The notes below the pieces were generated by a model. The model did not search any database. It saw only the letters and a list, made by a program, of their open reading frames with translations, and was not told where the DNA came from. Below are positions 42,504-51,002 of a DNA stretch of 64,000 bases, piece by piece. The stretch comes from Candidatus Eiseniibacteriota bacterium (lineage in GTDB: Bacteria > Orphanbacterota > Orphanbacteria > Orphanbacterales > Orphanbacteraceae), in contig JAFGGD010000059.1 of the NCBI GenBank assembly GCA_016930695.1, positions 14,286-78,285 on the forward strand, read 5' to 3'. Each line of letters opens with the position of its first letter. Within the stretch, counting starts at the first letter, position 1. The position numbers were made by a program, and so were the translations under genes.

Positions 42504-44264
42504 TCAGGAATCCCCGCTCTTCTCGCGCCGCATCCCGCGCGCCCGCCCGTCGTTCGCCGCGCCGCCGCGGCACCCCTTCCGCTTCCCCGCTGTGGCGTCC
42601 GTCGCCCTGGAAGCGCCTCCGCCTAAACGCTCGAGTTCCTCCGGAGACAGAACACCCCTGGATTTCAGGATCTCGATCTGATCGGGGGTCAGCCCGCCCC
42701 CGTGCCGGGGACCATCCGAGGCGAAGGCCTCTTCCTTGCCGCTGCCGAACTCTTGAATCGTCTTGCTGATCCGGACGGCGCACCAGTCGTGTCCGCACAT
42801 GGCGCAGAAATCCGTGTCTACGTCCAGGTCTTCGTCGTGCAAGGCGCGGGCCGTATCCGGATCGAAGCTGGCGCCCACGTGCTTCTCCCAGTGCAGCGCC
42901 GCCCGCGCTTTGGTCAGCTCGTCGTCCCGATCCCGGGAACCGGGTATGCCGAGGGCGACATCCGCCGCGTGGGCGGCGATTTTATAGGCGATGCACCCGA
43001 GCTTCACGTCCTCGCGCTTGGGTAGCCCGAGGTGTTCCTTCGGCGTGACGTAGCAGAGCATCGCCGCGCCGTGGTACGCGGCGGCCGTGGCGCCAATGCA
43101 GCTGGTGATGTGATCGTAACCGGGAAACATGTCGGTCACCACGGGGCCGAGGACATAGAAAGGCGCGCCGTGACAGAGAGCCCTCTCGATCTTCATGTTG
43201 TATTCGATCTGGTCGAAGGGGATGTGCCCCGGTCCCTCGACCATAACCTGGACGCCTTTCGCCCAAGCGCGTTCCGTCAACTCGCCGAGGGTGTCCAGCT
43301 CCCGCATCTGCGCTTCGTCCGTCGCGTCCGCGAGCCCTCCCGGACGGAGTCCGTCGCCGAGAGAGAAACTGACGTCGTACGCGCGCATGATGTCGGCGAT
43401 TTCGTCGAACAGATCGTACATGGGGTTCTCTTTGCCGTGGCGGAGCATCCATTGCGCGAGAAGAGAGCCCCCGCGGGACACGATGCCGATCAGGCGGTTC
43501 TTTACGTACGGAAGATGCTCCCGCTTGAGTCCGGCGTGGATCGTGAAGAAGTCCACTCCTTGCCGGGCCTGCTTCTCCAGTTCCTTCAAGATGTCGTCGT
43601 GCGTGAGATCCTCGATTCGGCGGTTCACGATCATCGAGTAAAGAGGAACCGTGCCGACCGGCACCGGCGAGTTCCGAATAATCGCTTCGCGGCAAGCGTC
43701 CAGGTCGCCCCCCGTGGAGAGATCCATGACCGCATCCGCCCCCCAGCGAATCGCCCAACGCATCTTCTCCACTTCCTCGTCGAGATCGCTGCGGACCGGT
43801 GAAGCGCCCAAGTTCGCGTTGATTTTCGTGGAAGCCGCGCGCCCGATGCATATCGGGTCCAGGCCGTGGGAAAGATGCGCCCGGTTCGCGCAGATCAGCA
43901 TCCGCCCCGCCGCGATCTCGTCGCGAACGCCCTCCGGCGACAGGTGCGGTTCCCGCTCCGAGGCGCGCCGCATTTCCGGGGTGATCTCCCCGAGACGCGC
44001 CCTTTCCAGCTGCGTGATCGCCTCCCCCGCCCCCCGGGGGGCCGGGTTGAAATCCCACGCGGTCTTTTCCGATGGTCCCGGCATTCCCGGCGTATCGGGC
44101 GACGCGAAGGCGAGGGGACCGCCCAGGTCCGGTCGCGGGGTGAAACTGGGCGGCGCCGTCCCCGCCCGATCCGTCGCGGGGTGACTCCCCCCACGAAGGG
44201 GAAGAGCGAAACGGAAAGAGGGGCGCGACCCCATTCCGGGCTTTTTCGATTCTCCCTTGGACAT
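42504..44264 (-). CDS. thiC: Phosphomethylpyrimidine synthase ThiC
   Basis: KINANLGAS, MDLSTGG, SLGDGLRPG, MVEGPGH, YVTPKEHLGLP, C-terminal CAMCGHDWC; TPP riboswitch upstream; start at 44264. Confidence 0.95.
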   Translation of the reverse strand: MSKGESKKPGMGSRPSFRFALPLRGGSHPATDRAGTAPPSFTPRPDLGGPLAFASPDTPGMPGPSEKTAWDFNPAPRGAGEAITQLERARLGEITPEMRRASEREPHLSPEGVRDEIAAGRMLICANRAHLSHGLDPICIGRAASTKINANLGASPVRSDLDEEVEKMRWAIRWGADAVMDLSTGGDLDACREAIIRNSPVPVGTVPLYSMIVNRRIEDLTHDDILKELEKQARQGVDFFTIHAGLKREHLPYVKNRLIGIVSRGGSLLAQWMLRHGKENPMYDLFDEIADIMRAYDVSFSLGDGLRPGGLADATDEAQMRELDTLGELTERAWAKGVQVMVEGPGHIPFDQIEYNMKIERALCHGAPFYVLGPVVTDMFPGYDHITSCIGATAAAYHGAAMLCYVTPKEHLGLPKREDVKLGCIAYKIAAHAADVALGIPGSRDRDDELTKARAALHWEKHVGASFDPDTARALHDEDLDVDTDFCAMCGHDWCAVRISKTIQEFGSGKEEAFASDGPRHGGGLTPDQIEILKSRGVLSPEELERLGGGASRATDATAGKRKGCRGGAANDGRARGMRREKSGDS

Positions 44265-44385
44265 TTTGCGGCTCCTTCTTTTTCGCAGAGCCCGGCCGGA
44301 TCGGTGAGTGTCCAACGCGGTGAGGGTGGGGGCGGGAGCGGTGTTTACGCCGGCCTTCCCGAGGCCGGGCATCCGCGTGCCGTGT

Positions 44386-44671: not shown

Positions 44672-47600
44672 TCACCGCACGATCACGCTCCTGTGAGTGC
44701 GCGTGCCTCGCGGAGATTCCAGTTTGATGAAGTAGACGCCCAGGCCGACCCGCCTGCCGGAGTCGTCGCGGCCGTCCCAGGAGAGCGCGTGGAAACCGGC
44801 CTTCCGTTCGCCGCCGACCAGGGTACGCACGTGCCGCCCGGATATGTCGTAGATACGCAGATCGACGCGCATCTGCTCGGGGAGTTCGTAGCTGATCACG
44901 CACTCGCTGTCGAAGGGGTTCGGGCGCACCGGGAAAAAGGCGAAACTGCGGCTCCCCGGTCCGCCGGGCCGATAAAACTCGATCCTCTCGATCGGGAACT
45001 GTTCCGACCCCGACGCGGCGAGATCGCCCCAGAGAAACTCGACGCTTCCGTCGTCCCCCGCCCCCTCCCAAACGAGTTCGGCCAAGTCGAGCCGGACCCC
45101 GTCGCCGAGGGAGGGCGCCGACGGTTCCAGGGTATAGAAGAGGAAGACCAGATCCCGGCCGTCCCGAACGAGCGCGGTTTGATAAGTCTCGCCGAGCGGG
45201 CGGAGCGCGACGGATTCGTTGCCGGCGGCCGCGCGACGGAGACGGACGGCGCCGGCGCGCACGCTTCCCGTCCCTTCGACGGAGAGCCGGAGCGTGTCGG
45301 AAAAGAGGCCCGCCCAGAGGACGGCGGCGTCCGACGCGCCCGCACTGCTCGTTCCCTGGCCGTCATCGAGAAGAGCCGCGCCGATCAGGCCCGGCAGCAC
45401 GCTCATGTCGCCATCGTCAACGTTGTCGTCGAAGTTCACGTCGGGCAGCCCGATCCGCACGATGGGAGACCAAAGCGGGATCGCATCGATCACATGATCC
45501 GCCAGCGCCGCCAGGTCCCGCTCGTCCAACTCGCCGTCGCCGTTGCAATCCCCGAGACGGTAGGTCTTGACTCGCAGATCCACCCAGACCGTGTCCTCCG
45601 GCGCCGCGGCGACATCGGTCTCGATTCGCACGAAACCGAGGAATTCGCCGGTTTTCAGAAGTTCCGGAAGCACATCGATCCAGAGCGTATCCTCGGCGCC
45701 GGGCGCGAGCGAACCGCCCTCCCTGTCGATTTCGATCCAAGCCTGCCCCGGGGCGGCGGTCCAGACGAAGGAGGTCTCCCCCTCGTTCCGCAGCACCACC
45801 ATGTCCGGATCGGGATCGGGCGGGCTACTGCCCACGGGGCCACCGAGCGGGTCGTGGTCGAAACCGAGGCTGCGGTTGGTGAGGTCGTACGCGCCGAGTG
45901 GTTCGCGCGTGAACTGTCTCGTCGAAGACCAATCGCCGTCGCCGCACGCCGCCTCGGCGGAGACGCGCCAGACGTAAGCGCCCGGTTCGGGGACGGAGGG
46001 GAGCGTGAAGGTCGTGGCGGTTCCGGAAACGGTTTCGTCCAAAACCGGCGCCGAGAAGAACGCATCGCGCGCCATCTGCACCCGATAAGCGTCCGCTCCG
46101 GGCACGGCTCCCCACTCGAGGGTGATCGTCACCAGCCCCTCGTAAACATGGCCCTCCGCCGGCGACAGGAGCGTCGGTGCGTCGGGCGGCTCGAGCCTTT
46201 CTCCTTCGGCGACGAGGCCCGGCGAAGAACCGCAGGGACCGACGGCGAAGAGTTCATATTCATAGAGACCGGGCGCCGGGCGATCGGCGAAACGCGTCGC
46301 GTCCGCGTCCAAGGTGGCGAGCGTCGCGCCGTCGCGGACAATCCGGAAACCGGTCTCGTCTTCGGACCGATCCGTCCAGGAAAGGATCACGCTGTCGCAA
46401 CGCGCGACGGTGACGGCGAAATCCGACGGCGGGAGGGGGGTGCCGGGAAGGATCGTGCCGGCCGCCGCTGTGGTTTTCGACCAACCACAGCCGTTCCCCG
46501 CCTCGACGGCGTACTCGTAGGAACCGGAAGAGGCGCGGTCGATCCATACCCGCGAGGCCGCCGGCAGGGAGGCCAAGGGGGCGCCGTCTCGATAGACGCG
46601 GTAGCTGTCCGCCTCGACCGACGCGGTCCACTCGAGCCGGACGAGAGAGCAACTGGTATCGCTCGCCACGAGCACGCCGGGAGAGCCGGGCGCGAAAAGA
46701 GCCCGCCCTTGGTCGCTCGCCGCCGCGGAAGTACCGCAACCGTTCTCCGCGCGGATCGCGTAGAGGCGCGCCCCGGGACCGGGTTCATCTTCGTAGGAGA
46801 GTGCGTCCGCGTCGACCGTGTCGATCGCCGAACCGTCCCGCTCGAGTATGTAGCGCTCCGACCGCTCGGCGGCTTTCCATGTGAGAAGCACGGAGCCGCA
46901 GCGATTCTCGCTCGCGGCGAAACCGACCGGCGCGCCGGGCGCCGACGGCAGCAGGCGGCCGACGTCGTCGACCTCGACCGACCAGCCGCACCGGTTTCGG
47001 GCGGCGATGGAGTAGACGTGTTCGCCGACGGCGCCGGAATCCTCCCAAGAGGTCCGCGTCGCGGGAAAGGTCGCCAGGGGCTCGCCGTCGCGAAGGATCC
47101 TGCAGCTGTCCGCGCCCGGCGGAGGCGTCCAAGAGAGGGCGACGACGGAGCAACGGTCGTCGCTCGCCGAAATCGAGAGGGGTGGGCCCGGATCGGCGGC
47201 GGACACGCTTCCCGTCGCCGTGGCCGGTTCGGAACGTCCGCATTTGTTTTTTGCAACAACCTGATATTGCCAGTCACCCGACCCGATCGCGTCCTCGAAA
47301 GTGAGGATCGTCGAGGGGAGCACGGCCACCGAAGCCCCGTCGCGGAACACCTCGTAGCTGTCCGCCGCGGCGACGGCGTTCCAGTCGAGCATCACGCCCG
47401 AACAGAGGCCGTCGCTCGCCGAGAGCCCTCCCGGCGTCTCCGGGGCGGGGAAGATCGCCCCCGCGACCACCGCGATGGACGACCAGCCAGCTTCGCCGCC
47501 GGCGCTCACGCCGTAGGTGTGCACGCCGGGGCCGGGAGAGTCGACGTAATAGGTGGTCGTCGACGGCAGAAGGGCGATGATCTCACCGCCGCGGTAGACG

Positions 47601-49612
47601 CGGAAGGAAGAAACACCCATCACCATGTTCCAGTCGAGACGGACGATCGTGCAGGAGCTGTCGCTCGCCGTGAGACCTCCGGGCGGGTTCGGCGCGGGAG
47701 GAAGAATGGTGCCCGTCGCCATCGCCGCGTCGGACCAGCCGCAGGTATTGCCGGCGCTCACGCCATAGGTATGCGTGCCCGTCGGCGACGTGTCCATCCA
47801 GAACCGAGTCGACGCGGAAAAAGCCGCGACGGCGGCACCATCCCGGTAGACCCGGTAGCTGTCCGCCTCCGCCGAGGCGCCCCAATCGAGACGGATCAGC
47901 GTCCGGCTGCTGTCGCTGGCGATCACCGGAGCCGGCGCCGCCGGAACGGGAAGCCGCGTGCCGACGACGGTCGCCGGCGAGGAGAAGCCGCATCCGTTAC
48001 CGGCAGAAATTTTATATGTATACGTTCCCGGGGTGGGCGCGTCCACGAACTCTCTCACCGACGAGGAGACGATCTTCACGACGGCGCCGTTTCGCTCGAT
48101 CCGATAGGTGTCGGCGTTCGGCGAGGCGCCCCAGGTGACCCGGATCGTCGCGCAATCGTCGTCGGTCGCCTGCGCGCCCGAGGGGGGCAGTGCGCCGACG
48201 CGAAGGCTCCCCTTCGCCTCCTCCGACCGGGCCGATTCCCCGAAGGAATTGAAGGCGAGCACCCGATAGCGATGGGTTCCCACCGGCGCCGTCCGGTCGT
48301 CGTAGAAGGTGCGATCCGCCGCCACATCTCCGAGGGGGGTGCCGTTCCGGAAAATCCGATAGCCGGTCTCCCCCGACACGTCCTTCCACTCGACCCGCAC
48401 CTTTCCGCAGAGCCCGTTGGACGCGGTTACTCCGGTCGGCATGTCGGGGGGGTCGGTGGTGTATCGGGCGATGCGATTCGCCGCGCCCGGACCGGCCCGC
48501 GTGAAACTCCCGCCCGCGATGAGACCCAGGAAGGGCCGGAGCGCGTAGATTGTGTCGTTCATCCCGCTCCGTTCGACCATCCAGGAGCGGCCGTTCCAAT
48601 AGGTGACGTTGTGGGTCGGGTTGACGCCGGCGGTGGAGATATCGCCTCCGGCGACGAGATAGTCTTCGTAGAAAGACAACGCATAAACCGTTCCGCCGAC
48701 ACCGGCGCCGAGAGGACGCCAGGCCGCGCCCGTCCATTTCGCGACGCGACGCGCCGGCGCGACCCCCGCGGTCGCGAAATCGCCGCCGGCGTATAGGATG
48801 CCGCCCTTGACGGCGAGTGCCCGCACCGCGCCGTCGACTCCGGCGCCGAGAGAGTGCCAAGCCGCGCCGTCCCACCGGGCGATGTTGGCGCAGGCGACGC
48901 CGCCGATGGACGAGAAGGATCCCGCCGCGATCAATTCACCGCCGAAGGATGCGAGGGCGTAGACGGGACCGTCCGGTCCTTCGGCTCCGAGCGCCGTCCA
49001 GGCGCCGCCGCTCAGGAGCGCCAGATTCCGCCGCGCCGGGTCCCCCCCGATATCGAAGGCGCCGCCGACGGCGAGCCCGCCCCCCCAGGCGAGGAGGGCG
49101 CGCACTCCTCCGTTGATCGGAACGGGTGATGGATTCTCCCAGCCGGAACCGGTCCAACGAGCAATCGGTTCATACTCTACGGACTTCCCGGAATTCTCGA
49201 GCAGTGAGTCCCCGCCCGCCACCAGAGCGCCGCCCCACCCCGCGAGCGCATACACCGTCCCACCCAGATCATTTCCGAAGCCGCTCCACAATGATCCGTT
49301 CCAGCGCCCGACACGGCCCGATGCCGCGCCCCCCGCGTTGCTGAAGGATCCGCCCGCGATCAGGGCGCCGTCGAAAATGGTGAGGGCATGAACGGTACCG
49401 TCCGTACCGGATCCGATCTGGCGCCAGCGCGGCATCCGCGCCGGGTCCTCCCGGCCCGTGACTGTTTCGTCGCCGCCGTCGGCCTGCGCCATCGCGGCGA
49501 TCGGCCACAAGAAGAGGGAGAGCACCAGACAGGGGAACAGGCGATTCAGACAGGAAAAAAGAGAAAACTCTCCCGGCGAGAACCGGGGCGGTTGCGTGCG
49601 GATCATCCCCAA
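44672..49612 (-). CDS. 1646-aa secreted protein: beta-propeller, 10 FN3-like domains, BACON-like domain, dockerin-like EF-hand pair, cohesin-like domain, FlgD-Ig/T9SS-like tail
   Basis: Signal peptide; W..LG.G.DG.V.AL repeats; FN3 W/Y pattern; GDCNGDGELDERD; PNPF...YDISGRHVRTL...WDGRDDSG. Confidence 0.85.
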   Translation of the reverse strand: MGMIRTQPPRFSPGEFSLFSCLNRLFPCLVLSLFLWPIAAMAQADGGDETVTGREDPARMPRWRQIGSGTDGTVHALTIFDGALIAGGSFSNAGGAASGRVGRWNGSLWSGFGNDLGGTVYALAGWGGALVAGGDSLLENSGKSVEYEPIARWTGSGWENPSPVPINGGVRALLAWGGGLAVGGAFDIGGDPARRNLALLSGGAWTALGAEGPDGPVYALASFGGELIAAGSFSSIGGVACANIARWDGAAWHSLGAGVDGAVRALAVKGGILYAGGDFATAGVAPARRVAKWTGAAWRPLGAGVGGTVYALSFYEDYLVAGGDISTAGVNPTHNVTYWNGRSWMVERSGMNDTIYALRPFLGLIAGGSFTRAGPGAANRIARYTTDPPDMPTGVTASNGLCGKVRVEWKDVSGETGYRIFRNGTPLGDVAADRTFYDDRTAPVGTHRYRVLAFNSFGESARSEEAKGSLRVGALPPSGAQATDDDCATIRVTWGASPNADTYRIERNGAVVKIVSSSVREFVDAPTPGTYTYKISAGNGCGFSSPATVVGTRLPVPAAPAPVIASDSSRTLIRLDWGASAEADSYRVYRDGAAVAAFSASTRFWMDTSPTGTHTYGVSAGNTCGWSDAAMATGTILPPAPNPPGGLTASDSSCTIVRLDWNMVMGVSSFRVYRGGEIIALLPSTTTYYVDSPGPGVHTYGVSAGGEAGWSSIAVVAGAIFPAPETPGGLSASDGLCSGVMLDWNAVAAADSYEVFRDGASVAVLPSTILTFEDAIGSGDWQYQVVAKNKCGRSEPATATGSVSAADPGPPLSISASDDRCSVVALSWTPPPGADSCRILRDGEPLATFPATRTSWEDSGAVGEHVYSIAARNRCGWSVEVDDVGRLLPSAPGAPVGFAASENRCGSVLLTWKAAERSERYILERDGSAIDTVDADALSYEDEPGPGARLYAIRAENGCGTSAAASDQGRALFAPGSPGVLVASDTSCSLVRLEWTASVEADSYRVYRDGAPLASLPAASRVWIDRASSGSYEYAVEAGNGCGWSKTTAAAGTILPGTPLPPSDFAVTVARCDSVILSWTDRSEDETGFRIVRDGATLATLDADATRFADRPAPGLYEYELFAVGPCGSSPGLVAEGERLEPPDAPTLLSPAEGHVYEGLVTITLEWGAVPGADAYRVQMARDAFFSAPVLDETVSGTATTFTLPSVPEPGAYVWRVSAEAACGDGDWSSTRQFTREPLGAYDLTNRSLGFDHDPLGGPVGSSPPDPDPDMVVLRNEGETSFVWTAAPGQAWIEIDREGGSLAPGAEDTLWIDVLPELLKTGEFLGFVRIETDVAAAPEDTVWVDLRVKTYRLGDCNGDGELDERDLAALADHVIDAIPLWSPIVRIGLPDVNFDDNVDDGDMSVLPGLIGAALLDDGQGTSSAGASDAAVLWAGLFSDTLRLSVEGTGSVRAGAVRLRRAAAGNESVALRPLGETYQTALVRDGRDLVFLFYTLEPSAPSLGDGVRLDLAELVWEGAGDDGSVEFLWGDLAASGSEQFPIERIEFYRPGGPGSRSFAFFPVRPNPFDSECVISYELPEQMRVDLRIYDISGRHVRTLVGGERKAGFHALSWDGRDDSGRRVGLGVYFIKLESPRGTRTHRSVIVR
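45900..48455 (-). repeat. Tandem array of ten ~85-aa FN3-like repeats
   Basis: Repeat consensus P..P.G..ASD..C..V.L.W....A.SYRVYRDG...D...G...Y.V.AGN.CG.S. Confidence 0.9.
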
Positions 49613-49997: not shown

Positions 49998-51002
49998 TTA
50001 GCCTTCCGCCTTGAGGGGCCGATTCATCAGACGATGAATCGCTTCGGCCGGGGGCACCCCCTGGAAGAGAACGGTGTTCACCGCTTCCGTGATCGGCATC
50101 TCGACGCCCGCGCGCGCGGCGAGGGCGATCACGCTCGCCGTGGTCGCCACCCCCTCGACGACGGAGCGGGTCGCCCCGAGCGCCTCCTCGACGGTCATCC
50201 CTTTGCCGATCGCCTCACCGAAGGAACGGTTGCGGCCTACCGGCGAGGTGCAGGTGGTGACCAAGTCCCCCACGCCGGCGAGACCGGCGAAGGTCGCGGG
50301 AAGGGCGCCGAGCGCTTCGCCCAGCCGTGTGATTTCCGCGAGCCCGCGAGAGAGGAGCGCCGCCTTGGCGTTGTGTCCGCTCCCCATCCCGTCCAGGATC
50401 CCCGCGGCGATGGCGATGACGTTCTTCGTCGCCCCCGCCAACTCGACACCGGTCAGATCGGGATTCGTGTAAACGCGAAAATAGGGGCGTGTGATCAGCG
50501 CTTGGATCCTCTCGGCGAGGGCGGGGTCCGCCGACGCGGCGGCGACCGTCGCCGGCAGATGATCGGCGATCTCCGGCGCGATGGATGGTCCGGAAAGCAC
50601 GGCGAGGCGCTCGTCGGGGATACCGAGCGTTTCCCGCAGAATCTGCGTCGGCCTGAGGAGTGTCCCGTTCTCGATCCCCTTCGCCACGGAGAAAATCGAC
50701 AGCCCGGACGGGAAGCGCTCGGCGAGCCTCGCCCAAACGGGGCGGATGAACTGCGTGGGGACCGCCGAGAGAACGATGGCCGCGTCGCCGAAGGCCTCCT
50801 CCTCCCGGCCGGTCACCCGGATCTCTTTCGGAAGCGGGTGGCCGGGGAGGAAACGGACGTTCTCACGCTCCGCCGCCATCTCCTCCGCCTGTTCCGGAAA
50901 GGCGGACCAAATGCTCACGCCATGGCCGTTCTCGGCGAGCAAGAGCGCGCACACGGTCCCCATCGCCCCGTCGCCGATCACGGCGATTCTTTCTCTCTTC
51001 AT
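49998..51002 (-). CDS. gpsA: NAD(P)H-dependent glycerol-3-phosphate dehydrogenase
   Basis: GDGAMGT, AKGIE, LSGPSIA, KNVIAIAAG, GVGDLVTTC.S..GRN. Confidence 0.96.
   Translation of the reverse strand: MKRERIAVIGDGAMGTVCALLLAENGHGVSIWSAFPEQAEEMAAERENVRFLPGHPLPKEIRVTGREEEAFGDAAIVLSAVPTQFIRPVWARLAERFPSGLSIFSVAKGIENGTLLRPTQILRETLGIPDERLAVLSGPSIAPEIADHLPATVAAASADPALAERIQALITRPYFRVYTNPDLTGVELAGATKNVIAIAAGILDGMGSGHNAKAALLSRGLAEITRLGEALGALPATFAGLAGVGDLVTTCTSPVGRNRSFGEAIGKGMTVEEALGATRSVVEGVATTASVIALAARAGVEMPITEAVNTVLFQGVPPAEAIHRLMNRPLKAEG

Follow-up and report, generated by a model that had tools for sequence, protein, structure and literature searches.

Rod-like stalks on bacterial surfaces are stiffened by Ca2+-rigidified linkers, as in RTX and BIg adhesins, or by intramolecular isopeptide bonds, as in the pilins and adhesins of Gram-positive bacteria. 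Ordinary tandem arrays of fibronectin type III (FN3) domains are not known to carry a cysteine ladder, or anything but non-covalent contacts at their junctions. Disulfide bonds between domains have been described in GhpA, the grappling-hook protein of Aureispira sp. CCB-QB1 (PDB 9flp, 9flv, 9flw and 9fly; 10.1101/2024.01.29.577165), a glycosylated, heptameric protein of 5898 amino acids with approximately 52 repeats. Cryo-electron microscopy revealed disulfides that join nearby immunoglobulin (Ig)-like domains (e.g., Cys2988-Cys3140), which were credited for the straight, rigid stem (10.1101/2024.01.29.577165). A predicted disulfide from the catalytic domain to an Ig domain has also been reported in the literature for cytophagalysin. 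Here we describe a protein, P0001, encoded on the minus strand of a 64,000-nucleotide stretch of DNA (the window) from Candidatus Eiseniibacteriota bacterium (assembly GCA_016930695.1, contig JAFGGD010000059.1, positions 14,286 to 78,285). Its stalk of ten FN3-like repeats (R1 to R10) carries cysteines at two recurring positions, one in the turn between strands A and B and one in the turn between strands F and G. Disulfides from the A-B Cys of each repeat (n) to the F-G Cys of the next (n+1) are predicted along this stalk, with a probability of about 0.8.

GhpA is a type IX secretion system (T9SS) substrate with a C-terminal sorting domain, as P0001 appears to be, and its long stem is straight and made up of tandem Ig-like repeats. 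Cys2988 and Cys3140 of GhpA lie 152 residues apart, near the 137-151 residues of the predicted P0001 staples. Since the GhpA disulfides join neighbouring Ig-like domains, the inter-domain disulfide principle is already known for bacterial surface rods, and an initial sequence-only reading of this DNA, which noted the design as unfamiliar from bacterial FN3 adhesins, needs correcting on this point. A literature search (inter-domain disulfide, FN3, Eisenbacteria/T9SS) returned no paper on an n / n+1 Cys rule for the P0001-type FN3 family, and the GhpA preprint was its sole specific match. Fibronectin domains 7-10, the titin A-band and the receptor tyrosine phosphatases delta, sigma and LAR share the seven-strand fold and the head-to-tail order of the P0001 repeats, by profile and fold matches, and titin has residues other than Cys at the positions aligned with the two P0001 cysteines. 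Ca2+- and isopeptide-stiffened stalks follow the same logic of beta-sandwich beads made into a stiff rod that resists proteases and force. However, isopeptide bonds are internal to a domain and Ca2+ sites involve no covalent link, whereas the bond in P0001 would span each domain boundary covalently.

The FN3-like nature of the array is indicated by two Pfam families that exceed their curated cut-offs, RGI_lyase PF18370 (6.9e-20, 71.6 bits; cut-off 27.8) and fn3 PF00041 (3.9e-10, 40.2 bits; cut-off 25). A purpose-built repeat hidden Markov model (HMM) set the bounds of the repeats at residues 392-476 (R1), 477-559 (R2), 560-643 (R3), 644-726 (R4), 727-810 (R5), 811-894 (R6), 895-977 (R7), 978-1061 (R8), 1062-1149 (R9) and 1150-1244 (R10). 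R1-R9 are of the ASDxxC...NxCGxS type, while R10 is divergent and retains the F-G Cys only. The gene and the features of its stalk are located in the window as follows.

44672..49612, minus strand: whole gene, 1646 codons plus stop (open reading frame list, translation)
45881..48439, minus strand: ten FN3-like repeats, R1-R10 (PF18370, PF00041, repeat HMM, AlphaFold2)
48242..48244, minus strand: F457 at the F-G position of R1, NSFG (ortholog comparison)
47990..48409, minus strand: predicted disulfide 1, C402 (A-B turn of R1, codon 48407-48409) to C541 (F-G turn of R2, codon 47990-47992)
47741..48154, minus strand: predicted disulfide 2, C487 (R2) to C624 (R3)
47489..47905, minus strand: unstapled R3/R4 junction, R570 (codon 47903-47905) at the A-B position and A708 (codon 47489-47491) at the F-G position
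47240..47653, minus strand: predicted disulfide 3, C654 (R4) to C791 (R5)
46988..47404, minus strand: predicted disulfide 4, C737 (R5) to C875 (R6)
47102..47104, minus strand: odd cysteine C837 in R6, ADSCR (repeat alignment)
46736..47152, minus strand: predicted disulfide 5, C821 (R6) to C959 (R7)
46487..46900, minus strand: predicted disulfide 6, C905 (R7) to C1042 (R8)
46232..46651, minus strand: predicted disulfide 7, C988 (R8) to C1127 (R9)
45944..46399, minus strand: predicted disulfide 8, C1072 (R9) to C1223 (F-G turn of the divergent R10)

The predicted staples rest on the Cys positions and on the pairing rule seen in homologs, and staples 1-3 also on the loop assignment from AlphaFold2. 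P0001 has eight A-B cysteines (C402, C487, C654, C737, C821, C905, C988 and C1072), with R3 (R570, codon at 47905) and R10 lacking one, and eight F-G cysteines (C541, C624, C791, C875, C959, C1042, C1127 and C1223), with R1 (NSFG, F457) and R4 (GEAG, A708, codon at 47491) lacking one. The status of A-B(n) and F-G(n+1) therefore matches at 9/9 junctions and at both ends of the array. The sequence-only reading had described this match in the same terms, and every Cys position and coordinate that it listed (approximately 47905 and 47490 for the R3/R4 gap) was confirmed by the translation and the Cys map, including the extra Cys in R6. Within P0001 alone, the probability of such a match is 1/45 (two absences among ten per side), so the pattern taken by itself is modestly improbable and suggestive but no more. 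The final repeat has only the F-G Cys in 5/5 proteins of this architecture (P0001, P0006, P0012, P0018 and P0128). The extra residue C837 stands in place of the conserved Tyr that opens strand C, and no partner is predicted for it; it may be a thiol that is buried and unpaired. A Cys in the equivalent ADSC setting occurs in P0006 (ADSCL) and not in P0012.

The pairing was examined across homologs collected with a word-indexed search plus an exhaustive one by HMMER. Matches at E <= 0.001 came to 18,200 proteins and those at E <= 1e-10 to 7,182, and the best 250 related multi-repeat proteins were used; source names among the homologs include Candidatus Eisenbacteria, Latescibacterota, Calditrichaeota and Planctomycetes. 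Arrays were split with the repeat HMM and Cys was scored at the A-B and F-G positions. Cysteine is absent from both positions in 167/250 of these proteins and present at both in most repeats of 68/250, with a few other layouts. The range scored for the A-B Cys was tightened from 5-11 residues before the Trp; the loose range had admitted P0198, in which an A-strand Cys pairs with a G-strand Cys inside one domain. In P0169, P0164 and P0170 strand F ends with a second Cys, 3-5 residues ahead of the F-G Cys, and P0144 has a further, different pattern. Other Cys layouts of the same FN3 family also occur among P0236, P0162 and P0184, and the layouts seen in the family include repeats with four or more Cys. 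The canonical set comprises 64 cysteine-bearing proteins with 987 repeats and 905 scorable junctions. A PNPF-type C-terminal sorting motif was found in 37/64 stapled-array proteins and 38/168 cysteine-free proteins by a crude regular expression, many proteins being truncated.

In the canonical set, the A-B Cys of one repeat and the F-G Cys of the next were both present at 881 junctions and both absent at 13, with only the A-B Cys at 1 and only the F-G Cys at 10 (phi 0.72, Fisher p 4e-22). Earlier homolog subsets give concordant co-occurrence tables. About half of the 11 discordant junctions are explained by a Cys that has moved to the C-terminal tail of the repeat (P0160, P0210 and P0054) or by a failure of the A region to align (two P0168 repeats). 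The remainder occur in proteins with additional Cys, which were treated as other cysteine subfamilies (P0038, P0115 and one P0168 junction). A stricter offset range gave nine more apparent exceptions, six of them a Cys one residue off register and three a relocated or extra Cys. Among canonical-homolog junctions, no clean single loss of either Cys was seen. Mutual information with average-product correction likewise ranked the pair of column 10 (repeat n) and column 64 (repeat n+1) first among 6724 inter-repeat column pairs (82 x 82), with a value of 0.070.

A rival explanation for two Cys per domain is an intra-domain disulfide, joining the A-B and F-G Cys of the same repeat and leaving lone thiols in R1, R3, R4 and R10 of P0001. 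Both Cys are carried by 894/977 repeats, which on a first look suggests one pair per domain, yet the two positions vary almost independently within a repeat (894 with both, 31 with the first only, 49 with the second only and 3 with neither; phi 0.03). Thus, 80 repeats have a single Cys and only 3 lack both, and the corrected mutual information of the same-repeat pair is negative (-0.007). The AlphaFold2 strand map, described below, also places the two positions at opposite poles of the domain with a full 11-residue F strand between them, and an intra-domain bond is accordingly regarded as scarcely credible. Reverse pairing, between F-G(n) and A-B(n+1), was tested and rejected (827 with both, 45 with the first only, 33 with the second only and 0 with neither; phi -0.04, corrected mutual information -0.015).

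The co-occurrence could also be a by-product of duplication and recombination of repeats, or of chance, with no structural coupling behind it. Arrays do evolve by unit duplication, close relatives inherit the same gaps (P0015, P0134 and P0023), and within P0001 alone the pattern has a chance probability of 1/45. However, when F-G status was permuted within the 64 proteins (5000 permutations), co-losses averaged 1.8 with a maximum of 7, against 13 observed, and mismatches averaged 53 with a minimum of 42, against 11 observed; the observed values were reached in 0/5000 permutations. Paired loss, in which a repeat with only the F-G Cys is followed by one with only the A-B Cys, was found in at least six separate contexts: (i) P0001/P0006, (ii) junction 20 of P0011, (iii) junction 5 of P0015/P0134/P0023, (iv) a second break in P0015/P0131/P0134/P0023, (v) junction 1 of P0127 and (vi) junction 3 of P0029. 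Furthermore, the coupled sites are 137 residues apart and two Cys, F-G(n) and A-B(n+1), are kept between them. A single duplication, deletion or gene-conversion tract could not take away the outer two while sparing the inner two, so selection on the pair is the natural reading, and history or chance alone is exceedingly improbable as the cause. At one of the two unstapled junctions of P0015, P0131, P0134 and P0023, the flanking repeats both gain extra Cys (e.g., CNQICLTW ... YCD ... GECF ... GCRR), which may form compensating intra-domain bonds.

Structure prediction with AlphaFold2 gives a strand map of the repeats. A model of R1-R5, from a 39-row alignment of non-overlapping five-repeat windows from eleven homolog loci, has a predicted local distance difference test (pLDDT) score of 96.4 and a predicted template modelling (pTM) score of 0.64. 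A model of R2-R4, from 69 alignment rows, has pLDDT 97.4 and pTM 0.81 and covers one stapled and one unstapled junction. DSSP assigned strands A, B, C, C', E, F and G to each repeat; this seven-strand sandwich, together with the conserved Trp of strand B and Tyr of strands C and F in the repeat alignment, is that of an FN3-like fold. In the model, the A-B Cys lies in a turn three residues ahead of strand B and the F-G Cys in a two-residue turn that follows the 11-residue F strand. By strand parity, the chain of the model exits the domain at the C-terminal pole, where the A-B turn lies, and enters at the N-terminal pole, which holds the F-G turn. Since the seven strands alternate, the two Cys of one repeat are placed one domain length apart, and A-B(n) faces F-G(n+1). 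Contact in space between these two Cys would follow from the predicted topology and the covariation together. Sequence searches of the PDB returned no close solved relative, only generic FN3 domains such as those of titin.

The ends of the arrays follow the same rule. An A-B-only repeat opens 15/54 arrays and an F-G-only repeat closes 25/54. With an F-G Cys in the first repeat, 32/33 arrays have a Cys within 110 residues upstream (24) or an extra Cys in the first repeat (8), the upstream Cys most often lying exactly 6 residues ahead of the first repeat. Where the last repeat retains its A-B Cys, 22/23 untruncated arrays have either a downstream Cys within 110 residues (16) or one more Cys in the last repeat (6). 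In the orthologs P0006, P0012, P0018 and P0128, the N-terminal beta-propeller ends in a Cys 6 residues ahead of R1 (CDPP in three of them, CDAP in P0128), and the F-G Cys of R1 is present. P0001 has TDPP before R1 (propeller end, 48440-48460) and NSFG in R1, so both partners are gone. This is a second paired loss in P0001, and the ladder rule thereby extends to the propeller/R1 junction.

These results bear out part of what the sequence-only reading had proposed. Its placing of the pairing between repeats rather than within them agrees with the contingency tables, the mutual-information rank, the array ends and the strand map, and its topology, with the A-B loop at the C-terminal pole facing the next F-G loop, agrees with the seven-strand DSSP pattern. 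It had called beforehand for coupling analysis on homologous repeats, in which the A-B(n) and F-G(n+1) columns came first, and had named independent loss of the two positions in homologs as the outcome that would speak against it; the canonical homologs have 13 co-losses and no clean single loss.

The n / n+1 rule would be identical if the bonds joined different chains, in a parallel bundle staggered by one domain in which A-B(n) bonds F-G(n+1) of the neighbouring chain. GhpA, the closest multi-domain structural match, is itself a heptameric bundle. However, the disulfides of GhpA are described as intra-molecular and its lateral contacts as hydrogen bonds (10.1101/2024.01.29.577165). The ortholog propeller-end Cys, only 6 residues ahead of R1, fits direct neighbours in one chain, and AlphaFold2 models the monomer junctions confidently (pTM 0.81). 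Inter-chain bonding is thus considered quite unlikely. It is very unlikely, too, that the paired Cys are unoxidised in vivo, as free thiols in an anoxic habitat or in metal binding or some other junction chemistry. In favour of this reading, the organism is uncultured and its relatives are candidate phyla from metagenome assemblies, but two thiols make no usual metal site and the repeat consensus has no conserved His, Asp or third Cys alongside. Strict retention or loss as a pair is moreover the signature of a bond whose lone partner is harmful.

Several points weigh against the prediction of inter-domain disulfides and its comparison with GhpA. The co-occurrence counts are phylogenetically non-independent, with only about six independent paired-loss events. 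The sequence match to GhpA is weak, at rank 18 (E 5e-10) with a five-repeat profile and below titin and phosphatases, and GhpA is absent from the matches of a single-repeat profile, of P0011 and of a whole-protein profile. In Foldseek searches, the five-domain model had its highest TM-scores to GhpA fragments (TMq 0.45-0.47), whereas with the three-domain model GhpA was no closer than eukaryotic FN3 tandems, the best being FN4-6 of PTPRD (TMq 0.69). The repeats of GhpA and P0001 thus show remote sequence similarity, which does not amount to homology beyond the generic likeness of FN3 and Ig domains.

The sequence-only reading had further proposed rigid segments of repeats 1-3 and 4-10 with one built-in hinge between them, and this did not hold up. 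Of the four orthologs, only P0006 shares the double loss at R3/R4 (with Y and T there), and the ladders of P0012, P0018 and P0128 are complete. Relative to its orthologs, P0001 has two unstapled junctions, at propeller/R1 and at R3/R4; judged by sequence comparison, both are lineage-specific paired losses. In the repeat sequences the R3/R4 linker has the same length as the others. The pLDDT at the R3/R4 junction of the R1-R5 model shows no drop (95, compared with 94-97 at the other junctions), but AlphaFold2 is no predictor of flexibility and its alignment was dominated by stapled junctions, so extra bending at R3/R4 is compatible with the model. A single hinge as a conserved design has nothing in its favour and is not supported, and the idea that staple-free junctions act as hinges is weak and less likely than not.

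The Cys map, the rule of co-occurrence, the fold and the assignment of loops are shown; from them a model is proposed for the bonds, the site of their oxidation and their mechanical role. P0001 would use Sec for export and then, judging from its C-terminal domain, a type IX-like pathway, and would end at the cell surface. Bonds would form in the periplasm, ahead of outer-membrane export, with the A-B turn Cys of each repeat bonding the F-G turn Cys of the next. This would give eight serial, overlapping staples (402-541, 487-624, 654-791, 737-875, 821-959, 905-1042, 988-1127 and 1072-1223). Each would close a loop of 137-151 residues, with successive loops overlapping, so that junctions would be fixed covalently besides their Pro-rich linkers. 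The distal beta-propeller would be held off the cell surface by the stalk of ten FN3 domains, whose length is estimated at approximately 35-40 nm from typical FN3 domain lengths. The staples would be expected to stiffen the stalk and to make it more resistant to proteolysis and to unfolding under force; their most likely role is to stiffen and protect, by covalent means, a stalk that presents the propeller.

Outside the stalk, further features of the protein are located in the window as follows.

49487..49612, minus strand: predicted Sec signal peptide, residues 1-42 (sequence reading; cleavage site inferred)
48443..49435, minus strand: N-terminal beta-propeller, approximately residues 60-390, with GG/W blade repeats (Pfam Rax2 PF12768)
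44675..44923, minus strand: C-terminal sorting domain of the T9SS type A / FlgD_ig kind, residues 1564-1646 (PF13860, TIGR04183)

The identical database copy of the protein (P0002) has 1644 amino acids and begins at an ATG two codons downstream, and the ATG at 49606 is likely the true start. By eye, the leader has a hydrophobic core, LVLSLFLWPIAAMA, followed by QADGG, with an AMA-QA motif. C21 and C28 fall within the predicted signal peptide and would be expected to be removed on cleavage. Rax2 PF12768 matched the propeller with 29.8 bits (cut-off 28.8), and a DUF5122 match fell below its cut-off. The C-terminal domain matched both FlgD_ig PF13860 (42.2 bits; cut-off 27) and TIGR04183 Por_Secre_tail (30.6 bits; cut-off 23), and P0001 thereby has the C-terminal sorting domain that marks T9SS type A cargo. 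About 300 residues lie between the array and this domain, in which sequence reading shows a dockerin-like DxNxDG motif. Between stalk and C-terminal domain, at approximately 45413-45565 (residues 1350-1400 or so), two Ca-binding motifs, DCNGDGELDERD ... DVNFDDNVDDGD, form a dockerin-like pair. Pfam at E <= 0.01 gave no match over this region of P0001, and the homolog P0009 has PF00404.

The window bears rpoB, rpoC and fusA and so belongs to the core chromosome. By translation, the neighbouring open reading frames are ThiC-like (42504..44372, 622 amino acids) and GpsA-like (49998..51002, 334 amino acids), both of a housekeeping type. On the contig of P0006, the ortholog is adjoined by a Peptidase_C25 + FlgD_ig gene, whose domain content is PorU-like, and by a SASA + FlgD_ig gene (L002 1544-5128 and 1-1435). 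The thiC/gpsA-like neighbours in the window are unlike these, so no conserved operon is indicated. The repeat HMM found no repeats of the P0001 type in other genes of the 64-kb window, and a single-protein scan of the genome contigs for related loci found no relative. An antisense open reading frame of 1367 codons (44693..48796, plus strand) overlaps the gene; it is rich in Arg, Gly and Pro, finds no support from any family and most likely reflects the 68% G+C content.

More broadly, uncultured FCB-group bacteria (Eisenbacteria, Latescibacterota, Calditrichota and others) could share the ladder as a distinct and widespread principle for building FN3 stalks, in which lineages tune mechanics by deleting staples as Cys pairs and the position of the gap, here propeller/R1 and R3/R4, sets the site of bending; as a whole this proposal is speculative and rather unlikely. 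If the bonds are confirmed, laddered FN3 stalks could be recognised in metagenomic proteins by a sequence rule, in which the A-B Cys of repeat n accompanies the F-G Cys of repeat n+1 and the array has an A-only start and an F-G-only end. For annotation, reading the two Cys per repeat as one intra-domain bond would mislead for the P0001-type FN3 family. Junctions with paired loss and cysteine-free arrays would serve as natural controls for the effect of one inter-domain bond on stiffness and resistance to unfolding, and the motif could be tried for rigidifying FN3-based scaffolds. The disulfides would then be a Gram-negative counterpart of the isopeptide bonds and Ca2+ sites of other bacterial surface rods.

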